Source of the DNA: Schmidtea nova
Taxonomy: Eukaryota
Length of the DNA: 64,000 nucleotides
Direction of reading: 5' to 3'
Assembly (NCBI GenBank): GCA_044892505.1
Contig: CM097882.1
Coordinates: 338,768,001 to 338,832,000, forward strand
Of the stretch, positions 22,151-55,911 are shown piece after piece. A program made the translations under genes and the position numbers. The notes beneath the pieces are model-generated. The model was not told the DNA's origin. It was given only the letters and a program-made list of their open reading frames with translations, and did no database searches. The first letter of the stretch is position 1, and each line of letters begins with the position of its first letter.

Positions 22151-24537
22151 CTGTCACACAAAAGGTAGTGTTCTCATACTGACTGAAATGTGACGCGAAA
22201 GAATTAATATAGTTCATTTAGCGGTGGTGAGAGAAATGGGTGACAGTGATGGTGATTATCGTGCTCGTTGATTTGTAGAGTTAAAGTGAAAAATGACCCC
22301 GGGTGTGACAGTACGGCTTGAAGGTTGACAGATCGCTCCTCCTGTCGACATATACTAATTTATGTGATTTGTTTATCGGTGGCTGTTGTGAGTGAAGTCT
22401 TTCGAATTGGATTAATTTACATATTTGGCACTCGCGTACCAAGCAATGGTTTGCGTACGACCGAGCGGAATAGTTTATATAGGTTCAATAACTTATGTCC
22501 GACAGTTGTGTATAAATGACTAAGCGAATGCCTGCTCTATATGTAATAAATAAACGAAGGAATGACCACACGAATACATAATTGCCTTACTTACTACTGT
22601 TTATAAGTTTTATGTGATTTGACATTTACTCCCTCGTCTAAGAAAATTAGGTTCTCTCGGTATAATTGTCGATAAAATCTATGTAATCAACCTTTCACAC
22701 CATCATCATTGAAAATTAAGTGCCTTAGTTGCAATCCTGTGAATTTAACGCATTTGAAAAAGATCAAGTAACAATGGAGTTAATTCATTCTGAAATGTAT
22801 TGGATTGAATTAAACTGAACTGTGTCGAATTGAGTGTCCTATATACAACCCCTTCCCCATTTACCCGTTTAGCGCAAGTCACCGCATCGGCGTAATCCCC
22901 AAGGATCACGACTGAAAGGTCGGCAACACTGTGGTCAGAAACCAAAAAGGCTCATCCTCAGGGATTTTACTCCGGGATGAAATCAATGAGGGCTTACCCC
23001 GAATGAATCGAACAAAATATCAAAATAAGAATAATACTTTTTATTGCTTTACAAAATCTTCTCGTAACCAGTACAATGATAACAATTCTAAACACAATCT
23101 ACTTCATACTGATCTGACACTGGTATTTATACCAATGCTGTCGTCAGTTCAGCCAATTAAATTCGAGTTGTCGGCTGATATACAGAAGGTTATTTGTTTA
23201 TTTTAATTTGTTTATTGATGTTTATTTTAGATTTTCCGGTAGGTAAGTCGAGGTACAATTAATGAAATAATTAATTGTACTTTTATTTCTCGATTTTCTT
23301 CGTAATTTAATCTAGTTTTTATTTTAGATTCACCTCTATCCAAAATTCACAATCATTCGATGAATTTCTGGACAATAATAATTTGTTTTTTATTTTTTCC
23401 TTACTATTATGTTATTTATTTCAGGTTATTTTCTTTTCCATTTTAAGTTAATTATTTCTACTTTTATATTTTTAAAGTTATTTTTCTCATTAATTTTATT
23501 CTTTAGATTGGTATGTTCAGCCCAACAATAAAAACACATACCTCTTATAAAACGAAAATGAAATTTTAGAGGGTGTTTCTCTCAAAAACCAAAGATTTCG
23601 ATGAATTTCGAAACTAAATCTTTGAACATGCAGCTTGCACAAAAAACTAATTCAAAATTAGCATCAGTAACGTAAAAATATTGCTTAATTACAGCAAATA
23701 ACACCAAAAGTCTTCGTGGCAACATTAGTTTTGAATTAAGTTAAACAATTAACCCAAGATCACTATATCTGACTTAGCTGTATAGAAAGAAGTCCCCATA
23801 AACAAAGATTTTAATCCCAATTGAGAACACACTGAGTGGGATAGTTTTGATGAAAACCTCCGTGGAACTAACAGAAGAGTGACGTATCTTATTTCGCTGC
23901 CCTTTGAAAAACAAATACCGTCAGAAAAACTAATAATTGCTAGTTTCTATCAAAATTTACCGTCATCCGTTGAATTTTAATTTTCATCAAATAACAAAAA
24001 AATACTCCAGAAAAGTAATACAGTCCGCCCTCGATTTTAATCATTATTATTTAAAGATTTATAAAAATAAATTTATTTAAATGATGGATAAAGAAAGAAC
24101 AGTATTGAACAAAAGAAAATGATATGTAAAAGATATATTGAATATGGGAAAACACAGAATTAAATGGAATGTTGAATTAAGCAGGAGAACTATTGACGAT
24201 ATACTAAAGAGTGAAGATAAATGGGCAATTTCTAGGAATATAAATTTGAAATCTAATAAAAGATCAGAATTTTATGAGTTGGAAAATTGTTTATATGTTT
24301 GGTTTTGTAATGTTAGATCCCAGAATAAAATAATTACAGATAGTGTGGTGAACCCAACATTTGGGTATGTTGATTTTGTTTCACATGAGGCGTTTTACTT
24401 TTATTTTTTATTGTTATTATCATGGAGTTGGACCCCCCCCACTCCCTACATATTAAGGGCAAAGAAACATTTATTATTTTTATTATTTTTAAAATTTAAA
24501 AATAATTAAGCTTACTATAGTAATAAACTATAGTAAG

Positions 24538-25377
24538 TGTTGTGTATATGAAAGTTGGAAATTTTTATCTATTATTTGTATTTATTATTATTTTTATTTA
24601 TTATTTGTATTGAGTATGGTACTGTGCATACCGGAACCCCCCCTTTACGTTATGTAGGCGCTTTATGTTTGGGGTTATGTTTTTTATTATTATTATTATA
24701 GGAATTCAAATTTAAAATTTGAATTCTTCAGCTTACTATAGTAATAAACTATAGTAAGCTATGAAATCAGAAATTAAAAAATATTGATTGAAAATATATC
24801 AACGCCAAATAGCAAATAAACAGTATTATACCGAATTTAAGAAACTTTGAAGAATTAACAAATGAAGAAGAATTTGAAGATTTAACAAAAGAAAATTGAA
24901 AAGACGAAGACAATAAAGAAATTGGAAATTCAAGTCTCTCTTCTCACTAAATAATCAAATTGTCCTGACTAAATTGGTCTCTAATCTAACTGTCACTGCT
25001 CTCACAGAAGATAACTACATTATCATAACTAATATCGCCATTTCATCTAGAAGAGGATCTTAAGAAAATATTAGGAAACAATATACAACATTCGAAGATA
25101 ATAACAGTATCCAATTTACCACCACCAAAAAAAAACAAAGTAATTGATAGTAGTTTTTCATTTCATTTTAGTTAAATAAAATTTGTTAAATTAACCGAGT
25201 TACTCTGTTGTGATTTATATCTTGTGGTTATTTATATTTTGTTATTATTTCTGTAATTTCCTTACACAGCATAGACCCCGAGTGTCCCCACAATAATCGG
25301 ACTGACTCTCTTGGGCACTTCAATATATCCATAAACACACATTCACAACATAAGTAATAAAAAGAACGTACATAATA
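24538..25377 (+). mobile_element. Solo LTR of a related Gypsy family inserted in the 5' LTR of Gypsy 1
   Basis: Absent from the 3' LTR; TG start; 5-bp TSD GTAAG; collinear diverged similarity to the host LTR (GTCCCCACAAT, TTGGGCACTT, the same palindrome). Confidence 0.85.
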
Positions 25378-26271
25378 GTAAGCTTAAAAAATAAATAATC
25401 GAAATTGATTAATTTAAATAAATTTAAATAAGATCAAATATTTATTATAAAAAAGATTTTGTTACAAATTATTCTTGCAGAAAGTAATATTAAAAATAAC
25501 AAGATTCGTTCTTTATGAAATAAGGCCAAAGATCAAACAACCAGCTTATAAAAGCTTTTATAGGACAGCTGAAACAATTTGGATAATTTTCTCAGTGAAA
25601 CAAGCAAATTTATCATTTATTTCAAATCACCCAGATTTATCAAAACAAGACACTTTATTATTTATTTCAAGCCTTCCACATATATCTAAAGATACTATTT
25701 AAAGAACTACAGAAACAATTAACTACACATTTAACTACCGAAACTGTTAGCTCTCAAAACAATTAATTGATATTAGAGTAAATCCTGTTCCAGAAAATAA
25801 TTACTACAAAGGAAATTGTTGGGTTCAGTATAAAGTAATTGTATTGTAGTTTGTTGGTTTTTGATTTAAATAAGTTAAACAATAAAACTTTTGTAATATC
25901 ATATTTCATTTTATCGTTGTTATTTTATTGTAATTACACGCATGCAATAGACATATAACCTGCACCCCAATTGTCCCCACAATTCTTTTCTTTGGGAGAC
26001 TCTTTTGGGCACTTACAAATCTCTAAACACACAATTAGTCTAAGTCAAAACAAGTTAACCCAAATAACTAATAGTACTATACCAACTGGTGTCAGAAGCA
26101 AAAAACATAACACACACTCGCCGATTTTTTTTGCAATCACTACGCCTTTTAGAATAGCTATAGATAGAGCTATAAAGGATAGTTGACTCTGTTAGCCGAA
26201 CACAGTAGGCTATATCCTTCAATCAACCTCAATTTTTTTCACATAAATAAAACAACATTACACACAAAAAA

Positions 26272-30477: not shown

Positions 30478-32232
30478 CTATTTGTACAGATTTTTTTTTG
30501 TTGGTTGTAAATATGCAATTTTTAGTGTTAAATTGTAATTTAAAAAAAACAAAACAAAACATAACAAAAACAAAACAGAAAAAAGGTTTCAAGTTACCGT
30601 TATCATTAAAAATGTAAATTTGATGTGATTGTGTGAGTGTTTTTCTTTTTCGTTTAAATGTAACCTCCGGTTTTTAAGGCGGAAGTTGTGTGGTGAACCC
30701 AACATTTGGGTATGTTGATTTTGTTTCACATGAGGCGTTTTATTTTTATTTTTTATTGTTATTATCATGGAGTTGGACCCCCCCCCCCATCCCTACATAT
30801 TAAGGGCAAAGAAACATTTATTATTTTTATTATTTTTATTATTATTTTTAAAATTTAAAAATAATTAAGCTTACTATAGTAATAAACTATAGTAAGCTTA
30901 AAAAATAAATAATCGAAATTGATTAATTTAAATAAATTTAAATAAGATCAAATATTTATTATAAAAAAGATTTTGTTACAAATTATTCTTGCAGAAAGTA
31001 ATATTAAAAATAACAAGATTCGTTCTTTATGAAATAAGGCCAAAGATCAAACAACCAGCCTATAAAAGCTTTTATAGGACAGCTGAAACAATTTGGATAA
31101 TTTTCTCAGTGAAACAAGCAAATTTATCATTTATTTCAAATCACCCAGATTTATCAAAACAAGACACTTTATTATTTATTTCAAGCCTTCCACAGATATC
31201 TAAAGATACTATTTAAAGAACTACAGAAACAATTAACTACACATTTAACTACCGAAACTGTTAGCTCTCAAAACAATTAATTGATATTAGAGTAAATCAT
31301 GTTCCAGAAAATAATTACTACAAAGGAAATTGTTGGGTTCAGTATAAAGTAATTGTATTGTAGTTTGTTGGTTTTTGATTTAAATAAGTTAAACAATAAA
31401 ACTTTTGTAATATCATATTTCATTTTATCGTTGTTATTTTATTGTAATTACACGCACGCAATAGACATATAACCTGCACCCCAATTGTCCCCACAATTCT
31501 TTTCTTTGGGAGACTCTTTTGGGCACTTACAAATCTCTAAACACACAATTAGTCTAAGTCAAAACAAGTTAACCCAAATAACTAATAGTACTATAACAGA
31601 TAGTATTCTAAAATTAAAAGCTATTAAAATTGGACAGTTACTTAAAATGGAGAGATTTAAAGCCTCGAAAGGTTGGTTGTATAATTTTAAATGCAGGTTT
31701 GGAATCAGACAAAAGAAATTGTGTAGAGAAAGCGCTTCTGTCGATTTAGAAGCAGTAAGCTTAGGAATCAAGAAAATTCACAACATAACCAAAGAACCTT
31801 TGGACAATGATGTTTATAATGTCAATGAAATGGGTTTTTTTTACAAAATGACACCGGATAAATCGTTAGCGGTTGGTTATTCAAGTGGATCAAAGCAACC
31901 AAAAGACAGAGTAGCAATACTTTTGGGGACAAACATGACAGGCACAGATAAACTCAAGCCATTAATTATTGAATTTGCAAGAAAACCCAGATATTTTAAA
32001 GATTTTAATTATGAATATTATTGTGATTATGAATATTCAAAAAAAAGTTGGATGAATGGATTAATTTGGAATAGCTGGCTGAAGAAATTGAATTTGAGAA
32101 TGATGGCAGAAGGTCGATAATGATTTATAGGATAATGATTTTAAGGAGATAATGATTTTAAGGAGATAATGATTTTAGTAATATTGAACTTTATTTTCTT
32201 CCGCCAAATACTACATCATACACACAACCAAT

Positions 32233-36353: not shown

Positions 36354-37420
36354 TGTTAGGCTGGTGAAATCGAAAATAAATTTAATAAAAATTTATTAAA
36401 AATTAAATACATACAACGAGAAACAAAGAGAAACGTTAAGCAGACGTTAAGCAGTAAAATAACGCAAGGGAAAATAAAAACAGTTAAGTACAATAGTAGT
36501 CATACTAACCGCATATTATAAGTCTGTCAAGATAGGGTTGAAGCGATAAAAAAGAGGCATCTCAAAAGAGAGCACACAATTTGAGTGCAGGTCGGATTTA
36601 CACACGAAGTATCGCACGAGAATTGAATGGGGAAGATCAGTGCTTGTAAAGTGATTATGAAAAGCATGATCAAAGAATAAAATCAGTATCAGAATAAAGA
36701 AAATAATTTATTAAAAATTATAGAATTAAAATAGATTTAAAATTAAATAGTTTTAATCAATAAATGCACAATAAAACAATAGATATACACCTAATTTAAT
36801 AGAATTAAAAACAAATATTTTCGAAAATAAATAAATCAAATTATAAAGTTAAATTTATGAAAGATAAATAAATACTCACTTATTAAAACTAATAAGTAAG
36901 TTTAAATCGTTAATAAATTATGTAAATAACAAAATAGGTAAGCGTCAGTAGAATTAGTATAAATAGACGCTGAAAAATCATAATCAAAATTTACCTCGGC
37001 ATTAAATAACTAAGAGCAAAATTTTGATTTTGATTTCGCCAGTCGTATGGATCGATTTTGAATGTGCGTTCTTGTGTTTATTTTAGTGAGATGTTTTCGG
37101 TCAATTGTTATTCAGTGGTCACAATAAAGTTTTGAGGCTAAATCTTTGCTTAAGGGATTCCAGATTAAAGTCTGAATAGGTGCGTCCCTCTGTGGTGCAA
37201 ACCACGAGGGTGAATCCGTGGCCGTGGAGCTCAGTAGTTCCACGTCATGGTGAGTGACTAATTTAATTAAACTAGAATAGTAAATAATTTGTAAGGGCGG
37301 GAAATACACACGGGATGTTCTAAGTACGAATGTACACTAAATGTTTGTATTAGTTATGAATGTACCTAGGTAGTTAGTTGTGGTCAACCACTAAGTCACG
37401 TAGGATATTGCTATTAAATT
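36354..37420 (+). mobile_element. Long (>1 kb) LTR-like repeat, 'family X'
   Basis: TGTTAGGCTGG start; TATAAATAGACGCTG box; shares blocks (AAGAGGCATCTCAA.AGAGAGCACACAATTTGA; AAGGGATTCC; GTCC(C)TCTGTGG) with 51266-51760 and with the split minus-strand copy at ~53400-60451. The 3' end is not defined. Confidence 0.6.
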
Positions 37421-44128: not shown

Positions 44129-45123
44129 ACACACATACATATACTGCATTAAGTAACACATCATAGAAGCCAGGAAAATCAAATATCCCATTACAATTAC
44201 ATCACAATGATCAAAGATAAAAATAGTACTAAAATAAACAGAATAATTTTTTTTTAAATTATTTTAAAAATTCCCATTAAAATATTGTTAAAATCACCAA
44301 GATAGGCACAAAAATAGATTTAGAATAAATTCATTTTGTGGGTAAGAAAAACTATACAGATCGCGCGTGAAACCCGAGACCAGAATGCGTGGGCGTTACA
44401 TAGTAAAGTAGTATAAATAGAACGCTGAAATCTTTAATTTAAAATCTCACTTACCAGCACACTTTGCTTAATTTTTTTATGTTGCTAAAGCACTGCTCAA
44501 ATTTTCTTCGAAGCAATTTGAAGAATAAACATATTTTTGTAATATTTACATCCACCGAGAGAAAATCAACAATAGAAACGCTTCAAATGAAACAATTTTG
44601 AGAATGGTTAAAGCTACAATTGGAAGAAGCAAAAAGAGTACAAAGCTCATATATCGAAAAAACAGACCAAACAACGTAAAGAACAAATTTTTGAAGATAT
44701 CGTGAGGGTGACAGTAAGTCAACAAAACACCAAACTTTAAGAGCAAGAGAGAGAGAGTGAAAAGAAACAAGAAAGAAAACAAGAAGAATCAGCATAATGA
44801 CAAATTAGCAACTCGAATAACAAGGACCAATGATAAAGAAGCTCATGAAGCAGAATTCAGATTGAGTCAAGTTAAATGATTGCATGGATGTGCTGAAGAA
44901 GATCATTGGAGAAAAATAAAAAAAGAATTATTAAAAGCAGAGATGTTTAAACTAACGAACGAAAGTAATAGCGCATAAAATAAAGAATAATGGTCGAAAC
45001 AAAAAAAATCAAAGAAAATCAAAGAAAACAACAATTTTATAAGAGTGAATGTAATAAAACGGATAATTTGGATGATGTAATGAATATATGTATAGGATCT
45101 ATCAAACAAAAAATCCTAAATTC

Positions 45124-45570
45124 ATGATAGTGTTGCCGTATTCGGAGGGGTTAACCGAGTATAAAAGAAAGATATAAAAGCAATTGAATGGTTTAAACTT
45201 TAGGATTGTCTCCAATTCTTGCAAAATGAGTAGTATGTTTGTTAATAAGTCGCAAATTCCGATAGGATTGCGTTCAGATCTCGCTTATCAATCTACATAT
45301 AATTGTGTAATGCCACATACATTGAAGAGAGTGTCCGTCATATAATTACTCGAGTTCATGAATATGATCGACCGAAGAGTGTCCAATATTAGTGATCATA
45401 ATAAAATCTGTAACAGAAAGATTGGCATGTCTGATTTTAAAATTTTATGAAAAAATCCTAATAATCATTATGAACGCATTATACGTGAAGCGTTGTTGAT
45501 AAGATCTTTATATCCTAAAATTAATGTGCAGAATGCTGTGAACACCTGTATTTTGAATGCTTTTAAATAG
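45124..45570 (+). pseudogene. Penelope-like element 3' relic: linker plus GIY-YIG endonuclease
   Basis: VLPYSEG..NFRIV..KSQIPIGLRSDLAYQ..C..NATYIEES.RHIITRVHEY...DFKIL..ERIIREALLIRSLYPKINVQ, with stops and frameshifts. Confidence 0.8.
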
Positions 45571-45749
45571 TTTGTGTGTTAGTATGTGTGTTTTGTTGTA
45601 TTTATTAAATTGAATGATGAAATTGGTTTTGTTAAAATTTAATAAATAATTTTTTTAATATTTTAGAAATTTTGTTAATAATTAAAAAGTTTGTTAATAA
45701 TTATTCATTTTAAAATTTATTTGAGGATTGATTTTTAATAATATTTAAA

Positions 45750-45947
45750 ATTAATATCAATAATTCCCATAATGGTAAGACTATAGATCAATATTTCTTT
45801 AAATAAGTACACAATATTTCGGCACAGCCTTTATCAAGTGTGTATAAGTAAATACACACTTGATAAAGGCTGTGCCGAAATATTGTGTACTTATTTAAAG
45901 AAATTTCGATCTATAGTCTTACCATTATGGGAATTATTGATATTAAT
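45750..45947. repeat. 198-bp palindrome (96-bp arms, 2 mismatches, 6-nt loop) in the Penelope-like terminal region
   Basis: Arms 45750-45845 and 45852-45947 compared base by base. Confidence 0.95.
45856..45888 (+). ncRNA. Variant minimal hammerhead motif (U3-A8 core); mirror copy on the minus strand at 45809-45841
   Basis: acac-TTGATAA-a-ggc(tgt)gcc-GAAA-ta-TT-gtgt; palindromic ATAT stem III; AUU triplet. Confidence 0.6.
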
Positions 45948-46100
45948 ATTAAAAAAAGATCAAAGGTGAAACAAAAAGATAAATATGATAATATTTAAAA
46001 AATATATAAATCATATTTAAAAATTTTAAATATTTATCTAATTATATTACCTAATTTGTTTCTATAAATTGAATTTACCATAGTTTTTTGTTTTCTGGAT

Positions 46101-46137
46101 ACTTGATGATGACAGGGAGTCTGTCAAAATGTATAGT
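46101..46137 (+). ncRNA. Decayed hammerhead-like motif
   Basis: ac-TTGATGA-t-gacag(ggagt)ctgtc-AAAA-tgta-TA-gt; 5-bp stem II intact, core mutated. Confidence 0.4.
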
Positions 46138-46608
46138 TCACATGTTATATAAATAACGTTTTTTTATTAATTTACATCATTTTTTATAGTTATTAACTCA
46201 ATCTACATGAAGTTTATTTTCATTTTTACTTGAATTTTTATTAATTAAAATTTTACTATTTACTTTTGATTTTTTTGAACCTTATCACGTTTCTTTCCGT
46301 TCATTCACAGAATGGATTAATCTCTTTCTATTTCAATAATTTTCATTTTAATTTCTTTAAAAAAATTATAAGATCAAAACTTTTTTTAGTTATAGGGTAC
46401 AACAAAAAATATTTCTATCTTTAGTCTTACAAAAATGAAAATGAAAATTATTGAATTAAAAAAAATTTTTTTTTATCTTTTAGTCATTAAACATCTTTAG
46501 TAGTGTTATACACCAACGAGCATAAACTAAGGGCGAGATAGACAACAATTAAGGTATCTATAATAATAATAATTTAAATTATATATAGAAAAATAATACA
46601 TACCTACT

Positions 46609-51265: not shown

Positions 51266-51760
51266 TGTTGGGCTAACAGAAGTGAAATATTTGATTGTTT
51301 AATGCGTCAGAAATACACACACAACGCAATAAGTTAATTCAAATCCATGAAAACCCAAACACACAAAAACATTGTACATGAGGATCAATAAACATTGTTA
51401 ATTAAATAATTATACAAGAGATCGCAAGCACAACACAGTAGGCATAGAAACCGCATTTCATAAGCCGATCGAGAAAAGAGGCATCTCAAGAGAGAGCACA
51501 CAATTTGATTACAGGTCGAATTTACAAACAAAAAACTTCATAAAAATTGAATGGAGCAGATCATAGCTATAATAGAAGTACAAGAAAGCATGATCAAGGT
51601 ATAAAATAGCACTAAAATAAAGGAAATAATTTATTAAAGATTATAGTAAAATTCTCATTCAATTATCGTAAAAATCACAAAGATATGAATAAATATATCA
51701 ATTATTGCGCGCTAACACTCAAAGTGGTGTACACACAAAGTATCAGTGAATTAATAGCAA
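51266..51760 (+). mobile_element. Family X LTR-like relic
   Basis: TGTTGGGCT start; block AAAAGAGGCATCTCAAGAGAGAGCACACAATTTGA..AGCATGATCAA shared with 36550-36720. Confidence 0.6.
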
Positions 51761-52945: not shown

Positions 52946-53008
52946 GATGTCTATACATGCTACATGTGTTGGTATGGGTGTTGTTTTAAACGTAATTATT
53001 GAGTAAAC

Positions 53009-53383
53009 GGACAAAATGTCCCAGGTCAAAATGTCCCGGACAAAATATCCCAGGATATAATGTCCCGGACAAAATGTACCTGGTCAAAATGTCCCAGAAA
53101 TATAAAACTAAGTTTAAATATGCTCCCTCTCCTTGGTAAGTGAATAATCTGAAAATAATATGGCTTTACGCTGTTCGCTTACGATATTATTTTTCAGATT
53201 ATTCGCTTATCAAGGAAAGGGAGCATATTTAAACTTCGTTTTTATTGTTATTGTAATTAAGATTTATATTTCTGGGACATTTTGACCTGGGACATTTTGT
53301 CTGGGACATAATTTCCTGGGATATTTTGACCTGGGACATTTTGTCCGGGACATTTAATCCTGGGACATTTTGTCTTAGAACCG
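53009..53383. mobile_element. Foldback MITE, almost fully palindromic, with 15-nt tandem units
   Basis: (GGACAAAATGTCCCA/G)n on the left and its inverse on the right, plus an inner ~55-bp inverted repeat. Possible ATTATTG duplication at 52995 and 53384. Confidence 0.85.
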
Positions 53384-55911
53384 ATTATTGGCACTAGGGA
53401 TTAATACGACCCATAGCCCATCATAAATATTAGACTACGTCACTCGTGTACCCATAGTTATTCCCTAACTAACTATGTTGGTACTGTACACGGTGGTGAG
53501 AATCTAGTGAGCAGATGAGCTTCGTTGCCAAAACTACTCATTATATTTTCTTTTTCGGGTTCTTGCTGCCGATAGAAGAACTTACGCATCTACTTACTTT
53601 TCGGTCCTATCACATGATTAAATCTTAGTTTCTATCATCTTTTTCAACCTTAGATCTACACTTATGCATTCTCACAAATATATGAATAACTCCTCTTAAC
53701 CTACTCTGGTTTATTTTACAATTATGTCCTAAGCTACTTCTATTCATTGCCTAAATTTAGGTATCAATAAGATTTAGTTACTCCTTACCATACCGTGGAG
53801 ATATAAACAGCCTCACTCGTACAGAATCCCCTCGCAACTTTCGCCACAGAGGACATACCTATTTATTTTAGTGACAGATTTTACTCGGGAATCCCTTAAT
53901 CGAAAACCAAATTTTACATCAAAAATTTATTGTAAAAATTGCATAATAATTACCCCAAAAACATTACCCAAAATAAACATTAAACATACTTCTGAAATCG
54001 AGCCACACGACTGACTGGCGAAATAAAAAATCAGAATTTTGCTCTCAGTAAATTAATGCCGAAGAAAATCAGAAAACCAAACAACAAAAAAGAACTCACT
54101 CAATAATATTGATTCCGAAGCTACAATTTCCATTGATACAATGGAAATACAAGAGCCCCCCAACAATCAAAACGTGGATACCACCCAAAACTCCACAATA
54201 ACTCTTAATAAAAGAGAATTAAACTATCAAATATCAAAAGAATCAATCACCAAATCTGATAAAGAATCTACTAATACCAAAGAACCAATGGAAATCGCCA
54301 TTAACTCCAAGGATGTCATCCTGGAAGATAGTGATGGCGAACAAGATTTCAACATAATCTCTGATGGCTCCATTTTAGATCCATTAGAAAATCACACCTT
54401 AAATTCAATGCCATCTCCCACTCCCATGGCCAATGAGACAAGTTATACCACAAAGAATAAAGAAATTATCATATCCCAGCTTGATAAAAAAACACTTATT
54501 AAAAGTAGACAGCCCTCGAACTCAAAAATATAGTCATATCCTATAAAGAACCTTACCTAACTCCTGCCTTATAAGAAAACTTATCCACCCAATGAAATAA
54601 CTTTAGAAAAATTGACAATGAACTCAACAAAGATGCCGAGGATACCCTACAGACCTGTCTAATCTTACAAAATGATACAGATTTTACAAATCAAATCAAC
54701 TCATGTTATAAAAAATTCGAAGTTATTGACTACGACATCACTCAGACAATAACTGACTTCCAGAACTTTGTCAAAGAAGAATCACAAATACAATCAGAAC
54801 AAGAAAACATTATAACCAAGAAATCAAAGAAAAATCAATGTCTCCTAGACATGGAACCTCATTTGAAAACAAGTGTACCATGACTGTTGATGTTTCCTGA
54901 AACATCTCACATCAAATTAAATCAGACACGGACCAAACCAAGAGCTTAAATCAAATGATGATCAAAGAAAACAAAAAAATGAGATAATTACGGAATAACT
55001 CTATAAAATACCGTACTTGAAATCAAAAACACCTAGTGGTAGGGGATATCCCGGACTTACTGGGAGAACCTAACACTGTTTTTGCATGCCTAGTCATGCC
55101 TCGCTCTTCTGTAATTTATAAATTACTTGACTTAGATTGTGATTTTCCAGCGTCTATTTATACTAATTCTACTGACGCCTACATATGCTGTTATTTACAT
55201 AATGATATTAACGATTTAAACTTACTTATTAGTTTTAATAAGTGAGTATTTATTTATTTTATATAAATTTAATTTTATAATTTGATATATTTATTTTCCA
55301 AATTATTTGGTCTTAATTCTTTTAACTGATATGTGTATCCATTGTTTTTGTGCATTAATTGATTGATTATACCAATTAAATTCAATTTTAAATCTATTTT
55401 CATTCCTATCTCTGTGATTTTTACAATATTTCAATGAAGATTTTTTCTGTATTTTTTAATAAATTATTTTCTTTTTCTTGATACAGAATTTATTCTTTGA
55501 TCATGCTTTTAGTATTCACTATACAAGCACTGATTTTCCCAATTCAATTCTCGTGCGGTCCTTCGTATATAAATCCGACCTGCACTCAAATTGTGTGCCC
55601 TCTTTTGAGATGCTTCTTTTCTATCGTTTCAACCCTATCTCGACCGATTTATGGAATGTGGTTCGTATGGCTACTATTGTACTTTACTGTTTTATTTTCC
55701 CTTGAGTTATTTTACTGCTTAACGTCTTATTGTGCGTTTTGAATTTGTTTACTTTTGTATAAGTAATGATATTGCAATAAAGGCCAAAAACCAAATGTGA
55801 AGCATTTCAGAGTATATTGCGTAATTCAATCACTGTGTTAGTTATTGCGCAATATACATAACTATTTAAGAGTGATCACTCTGTGTTTTTATTAAATAAA
55901 TAAATCTTTAG

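Follow-up and report, generated by a model that had tools for sequence, protein, structure and literature searches.

A double-hammerhead palindrome in Schmidtea nova as a nested insertion of a younger Penelope-like element

The hairpin at 45744-45953 of the window, the 64-kb stretch of Schmidtea nova DNA that was analysed, carries a hammerhead motif on each strand. We find that it is an insertion of its own, 239 bp long (45751-45989), which a younger Penelope-like family, here family B, has left in the 3' UTR of an older relic of another family, family A. We propose, with a probability of roughly 0.7, that it arose as a single nested insertion of two head-to-head family B stubs, made from two short run-off cDNAs that were joined.

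The hairpin and the relic that surrounds it

The inverted arms (45744-45845 and 45852-45953) are 97% complementary, with three mismatches at 45749, 45790 and 45792, and fold at -148.6 kcal/mol (z -32), as good a fold being found in 0 of 200 shuffles. Both strands bear ACAC-TTGATAA-A-GGC(TGT)GCC-GAAA-TA-TT-GTGT, with U3 at 45860 on the plus strand and at 45837 on the minus strand. The original prediction, which described inverted arms forming a hairpin and a minimal U3-A8 hammerhead on each strand of an inverted Penelope-type terminal repeat, was right in these points. The right arm (45850-45946, +) is a family B pseudo-LTR that begins at a fixed 5' wall and holds the ORF start codon (45927), and the left arm (45751-45845, -), with its hammerhead at 45841-45809, is an inverted stub of the same pseudo-LTR without a tail. 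Between them lies a 4-nt head-to-head junction linker (45846-45849) that is not parental: the parental upstream letters differ, and linkers vary from copy to copy. A 43-bp tail of Penelope type follows the right arm only (45947-45989, +); this tail and the direct repeat flanking the insertion had been overlooked.

The minimal type I hammerhead predicted at 45856-45888 (+) is made up of a 4-bp stem I, the U3-A8 core UUGAUAA, an extra A, a 3-bp stem II and GAAA-UA-UU, with a palindromic AUAU in the position of stem III. Of the descriptor features given in PMC4209133 (like the other papers cited here, drawn on in part), it has the 3-8 pair, GAAA, UH, the extra base, G10.1-C11.1 and the palindromic stem III remnant. 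The cut site foreseen after 45884 agrees with the motif. In an arm alone, stem II pairs with a probability of 0.97-0.99 and the active register of stem I with 0.3. The hammerhead fold is worth about -7 kcal/mol against -148.6 for the full hairpin, and this difference of about 140 kcal/mol bears out the expectation that read-through would lock the hammerhead in double-stranded RNA. A motif scan of the window returns three hits, the two hairpin motifs and a canonical one at 6526; the latter marks a C3-G8 hammerhead with a palindromic CTAG (6519-6560, +) of a third family, with a near-identical motif in locus L039. An Rfam search of the hairpin gives no hammerhead family and only sub-threshold microRNA hits, equal on both strands, as with any long hairpin. 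A microRNA precursor is rejected on these scores (mir-3688, 59.3 bits against a gathering score of 84; mir-31, 44 against 51).

The family A relic is 5'-truncated and runs from 45037 to 45750 (+), comprising a broken GIY-YIG end (45124-45570) and the first part of the 3' UTR. Searching the genome with 45124-45600 yields siblings of 84-90% DNA identity, whose alignments to the relic start near 45037; our sample consists of 19 loci, the window's own locus apart. The siblings encode the GIY-YIG motif LVYQFTCNGCNATYIGET, and the decayed GIY-YIG ORF read earlier in this broken frame is thereby upheld, while a Pfam search on the window's relic, with stops read as X, gave no match. The siblings match the window up to about 45750 and then again at about 45979-46172. 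The remainder of the family A 3' end (46001-46172, +) has a C3-G8 hammerhead of its own at about 46097-46148, which in the window is decayed, having lost C3 and G12. Thirteen of the 19 siblings have such a hammerhead at most 800 nt past the ORF end, and in 12 of these 13 no family B arm precedes it; the 13th, L046, carries an independent family B insertion at another place in the same 3' UTR. Families A and B share no blastn similarity. The earlier claim that the hairpin ends the Penelope relic thus falls, since family A resumes beyond it with its own hammerhead and the hairpin is missing from 12 of the 13 siblings whose 3' end is intact.

The insertion is flanked by an apparent target-site duplication of 11-13 bp with ambiguous edges, the same 13 letters standing at 45738-45750 and at 45988-46000. 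The siblings are repetitive at this spot, and a small target deletion there is possible. Copies of the arm elsewhere in the genome are 94-98% identical to those of the window. The contrast between near-perfect arms and a decayed ORF, to which attention had been drawn, is real, but it follows from a younger element nested in an older one, and the conversion that had been suggested is not needed. A family B stub lies within 1.5 kb of four of the 19 family A siblings (L038, L039, L043 and L046).

The window holds further repeats. At 53008-53385, inverted arrays of a 14-15-bp repeat surround a 52-bp inverted pair, resembling a foldback element. Duplicated segments have a short palindromic core (24343-24800 and 30688-31188; 25375-25674; 300 bp, 100% identity), and dispersed repeats, direct and inverted and 76-97% alike, lie at 2957-3317, 10992-12139, 36354-36988, 51472-51697 and 55132-55727.

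Family B and its palindromes in the genome

Some copies of the arm run upstream into a GIY-YIG end different from that of family A. Family B has a single ORF of 865 aa with a reverse transcriptase (RVT_1, E 1.3e-7) and, at the C-terminus, a GIY-YIG (E 1.5e-5, in a sister copy), and judged by these domains it is an EN+ Penelope-like element. A CxC...CxC linker between the two domains only suggests the Neptune/Nematis type. Units about 2.76 kb apart are partial tandems that form pseudo-LTRs including the ORF start, and in the full-length copies L285, L294, L299, L311, L314, L315 and L319 the arm passes straight into the ORF. As read from these alignments, each hairpin arm comprises the initial 95-140 nt of the pseudo-LTR/ORF junction. 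From its sequence, a young subfamily of family B looks recently active. An intact 865-aa ORF is found at 877-3474 (-) of L336, within a large palindrome of tandem full-length units. Two long copies (L084, L122) have the hammerhead region deleted between short repeats, and in L179 a further GIY-YIG end unlike A or B (from 2426, oriented) lies about 400 bp past a family B copy.

Genome-wide we count 5,968 exact two-core palindromes and 35,745 exact copies of an 18-mer over the core, raw counts that are inflated by later tandem arrays of stubs (units of about 600 bp) and by four duplications about 16.5 kb apart (L111; L235-L240; L088-L095). Parental upstream sequence accompanies 12,771 of the 35,745 18-mers, mostly of the young subfamily, and about 36% of the exact 18-mers read through the wall. 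Reversed-pattern controls gave 0 for each of the three counts. Among 100 distinct palindromes, taken with a pattern that allows a 45-nt centre, none of the 200 arms extends past the equivalent of 45846, and the longer arm ends at the equivalents of 45846-45853 in 87. Some solo copies also begin at the wall. Outside this pattern, the centre of L321 lies about 10 nt further upstream. Contigs of two sequencing runs, which possibly derive from the source sample and so are not independent, have loose ends at 45850-45851; contigs of the same runs bridge the left hairpin junction, and none spans the hairpin.

The wall is likely to be the transcript start of family B RNA. A splice site is a possible and live alternative because AG directly precedes the wall in the young subfamily, and it stays live because in the Penelope of D. 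virilis, whose promoter is internal and whose intron lies 46 bp after the start (PMC2377424), the intron end meets helix I (PMC4209133). When this was checked, AG at the wall proved limited to the young subfamily, and the junctions had no constant first-exon letters. A type III hammerhead cutting at the wall is rejected, as its stems I and III are unpaired by eye.

The palindromes behave as insertions. In 81 of them, the window's own copy included and none found by a tail-bearing query, exactly one arm has the tail in 60, neither in 19 and both in 2, whereas independence would give exactly one tail at a rate of 0.48 (P about 1e-6). A target duplication of 9-13 bp, scored at 8 bp or more, flanks eight of 13 non-microsatellite palindromes (control 0/13), and 37 of 50 scored palindromes sit in microsatellites, the same ones as long copies. 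Palindromes with their own target duplications thus occur away from ORFs, as had been anticipated, but they are insertion products of family B and not an independent element. The one-tail pattern appears in line with two reverse transcription start sites and with the in vitro nicking and extension of both strands (PMC11167929).

The architecture of Penelope palindromes and its parts are already known. Penelope elements are described as having 5'-truncated copies in inverted orientation and, at one end, a tail of 30-40 bp (PMC8557442, PMC3846280). EN+ insertions in these sources (Craig 2021, PMC8557442, Fig. 2; Arkhipova 2013, PMC3846280, Pen2a_Av) share with family B the head-to-head inverted pseudo-LTR, the tail at one end, a target duplication of about 10 bp, microsatellite targets and a pseudo-LTR that includes the first ORF codons. 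Family B differs in that its halves are only 95-140 bp, occur in thousands and have a fixed stop before the hammerhead; the parts of PMC8557442 and PMC3846280 drawn on describe no such wall and no class of ends at the cut site. Likewise, fixed wall, cut-site class and arms of mixed origin were not found in the literature searched, which included parts of PMC8969392 and had subscription journals outside its scope. The U3-A8 core is common to family B and Cercyon of Schistosoma mansoni (Cervera and de la Pena 2014, PMC4209133), and both have an unpaired base before stem II, G10.1-C11.1, a palindromic 15.2-16.2 and a 4-bp helix I. Within the same search scope, the U3-A8 variant was found in PMC4209133 alone. 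That paper mentions opposite-strand hammerhead pairs 100-700 bp apart; in family B the motifs are spaced by about 20 bp, and stem II has 3 bp against 7-8. In the parts drawn on, it reports weak in vitro cleavage only and no in vivo evidence.

Two run-off cDNAs or one folded molecule

In the route we propose, the family B protein would nick both target strands, and two short cDNAs would be primed from two internal start sites, one per strand. Given an RNA whose first base lies just ahead of the hammerhead, cDNAs started internally 100-140 nt downstream would be short; both would run off the RNA 5' end, and their 3' ends would then be joined by microhomology-type end joining. Arms that start at 45885 would have as template RNA that the hammerhead had cut beforehand. 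With the opening 100-140 nt of the RNA copied twice, the double hammerhead would then be a by-product and not a switch. The steps that we infer are the wall as transcript start, a pair of cDNAs in place of a single fold-back, joining by microhomology, and cut RNA as the source of the 45885 class.

The closest experimental system is PAc, the Poseidon element of Anolis carolinensis (Frangieh 2024, PMC11167929), which like family B has a hammerhead at the ORF start and an AT-rich target. Its tail is bounded by two internal reverse transcription start sites, and each of the two strands undergoes nicking and extension in vitro. RNA that has not been cut serves as the main template, and among the RNA reads none had its end at the cut; head-to-head joining was, in the parts of that paper drawn on, not reconstituted. 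Family B, unlike PAc, has a cysteine-rich linker between reverse transcriptase and endonuclease.

The junctions differ between copies, with short overlaps or with inserts copying nearby letters, and linkers that are copies of nearby sequence reach about 20 nt. Many centres are perfectly palindromic. In L127, L134 and L148 both arms are trimmed at 5-nt microhomologies, with no cut involved. We presume that such palindrome junctions resemble polymerase theta end joining. The literature search, again with subscription journals outside its scope, returned no paper tying inverted Penelope insertions to polymerase theta.

The two arms of a palindrome usually agree, and do not always do so. Subfamily marks scored by script match in 84 of 101 pairs and differ in 17; random pairing would give a discordance of 0.62, a null that is overstated because the subfamilies differ in age. 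By a multi-base mark, the arms are of different subfamily in 10 of 97 palindromes, after one five-copy array was merged and three doubtful cases were dropped. An A/G variant near 45892 is, by eye, common to both arms in 48 of 50 short-centre pairs. In one discordant pair, L222, a private change near the centre is shared by both arms, which suggests conversion or a template jump. Arms starting at the cut site and stemming from two different RNAs were sought and none was found; of 20 short-centre pairs, two were flagged, one being a parsing artefact and one doubtful.

Could a single molecule fold back and prime itself, the mixed arms arising later by conversion or template jumps? Such self-priming has already been proposed (Arkhipova 2013, PMC3846280), and it accounts for the matching arms, namely the shared subfamily in 84 of 101 pairs and the concordant A/G variant; the perfect palindromes at many centres and a single tail per insertion fit it as well. 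The mixed arms, as read from the multi-base mark, speak against pure self-priming, and a second step is needed to explain them. It also sits poorly with the linkers, which reach about 20 nt and repeat sequence from close by, and with nicks and extension on both strands in vitro (PMC11167929). We regard the fold-back as unlikely.

Joining of two cDNAs, our preferred reading, has also to be set against copying of the palindrome as an independent MITE-like or retrozyme-like unit from a palindromic master. Thousands of short copies lie away from ORFs with target duplications of their own, and some centres recur. Yet the centres differ in dozens of ways, the outer ends are asymmetric because of the tail, the subfamilies of the two arms can differ, and the 37 of 50 scored palindromes in microsatellites share these with long copies. 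We consider this origin very improbable. A MITE is rejected for want of symmetric fixed termini and a constant centre, the copies having an asymmetric tail, variable centres and mixed arms. Animal non-LTR retrozymes (bioRxiv 10.64898/2026.07.22.740005) are like the stubs non-coding, hammerhead-bearing and derived from Penelope-like pseudo-LTRs; according to the parts of that source drawn on they consist of head-to-tail tandem units, whereas the stubs are head-to-head with no sign of a master of their own, and on this ground a non-LTR retrozyme is rejected.

The reading first put forward, in which the hairpin forms the end of the relic itself and acts as a selected switch, giving either self-cleavage or siRNA production, is hardly credible: hairpin and both motifs are real and any stub within a transcript would give about 96 bp of double-stranded RNA, but the hairpin belongs to a different, nested family that recurs in thousands with variable junctions, the antisense arm is transcribed first on either strand, so that the hammerhead would not fold, and per-column counts over 340 copies have the core positions decaying neutrally, like other positions, with no compensatory pattern. 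The motif is constant between subfamilies with differing flanks. A stub that lies within a transcript could, as a side effect, supply small-RNA silencing.

Arms that begin at the predicted cut

About 2-3% of arms begin at the predicted cut, G45885, over twice the share of neighbouring positions. Scaled up, the starts are estimated at about 155 for 45885, about 55-63 for 45886 and, as an upper bound, about 69 for 45884. They derive from 6,478 exact matches of the 20-mer just 3' of the cut, a set that misses the young subfamily. A purine precedes G45885 in 203 of these matches; 68 of the first 100 listed were examined and one duplicate was dropped, and 51 of the remaining 67 are truncated at the cut site (52 by script, L339 being moved by eye), two insertions being counted through both arms. 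As controls, 415 matches have a non-G at 45885, and four of the first 30 listed are truncated at 45886; 155 have a non-T at 45883, and 30 of 65, after five tandem duplicates were dropped, lack the hammerhead; many of these can be put down to the stem I repeat or to 45885 starts that match by chance.

The partner of a cut-site arm is usually short; of 32 that were mapped, 28 have their end at 45884 or at a position further 3'. Among 50 short-centre junctions read by eye (50 listed of 103), both arms are short in 21, and their 42 ends fall 21 times at 45885 (four ambiguous), nine at 45886, ten at 45887 and two at 45884. A 2-nt overlap makes the start ambiguous between 45885 and 45887 in 16 of the 51 cut-site copies. 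The window itself holds a second palindrome, at 5360-5488, whose right arm starts at 5411, the equivalent of G45885; this copy, to which the original prediction pointed as a parallel, is indeed a family B palindrome but lacks any hammerhead. The junction seen here is shared by 16 of the 32 partnered cut-site copies. Strict solo copies make up 7 of 67 in the 45885 class against 3 of 65 and 2 of 30 in the classes next to it, small counts in which 45886 solos, scaled to the genome, are not fewer than those of 45885.

On balance we favour the view, hinted at by the excess of starts at G45885, that the hammerhead cuts RNA in vivo. For this class alone, a competing account with a substantial though less than even chance is that microhomology-guided trimming or later deletion of the centre, and not ribozyme cleavage, sets the 45885 starts. 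Stem I itself has a GTGTA repeat, which by eye 10 of the 65 control-class loci use, the 2-nt overlap marks the commonest cut-site junction (16 of 51), trimming of both arms is seen at other sites, and in Anolis no reads ended at the cut (PMC11167929, in the parts drawn on). Trimming fits less well with the ends of the both-short junctions, half of which lie at 45885 as counted above, and with the solos, which have no partner to pair with and are small in number.

If ribozyme cleavage does set these ends, the stubs might serve as a genomic run-off assay, with a start wall and an in vivo cut wall, and a protein dimer might bind a pair of RNAs that form a dimeric ribozyme by pairing through the palindromic stem III, with one of them primed on each target strand. 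We offer this as a rather doubtful idea; the dimer is suggested because both arms are usually cut together while, on this reading, a part of the insertions would draw on two different RNAs.

Taken by itself, the locus is an ordinary Penelope insertion product. In the literature drawn on, the formation of head-to-head Penelope insertions and in vivo cutting by weak hammerheads are open questions, and the copies yield base-level predictions for both: an RNA start at the equivalent of 45849/45850, a cut after 45884 and arms of mixed template, in a genome in which an intact young family B ORF is present. For annotation, such palindromes mimic MITEs and microRNA hairpins.
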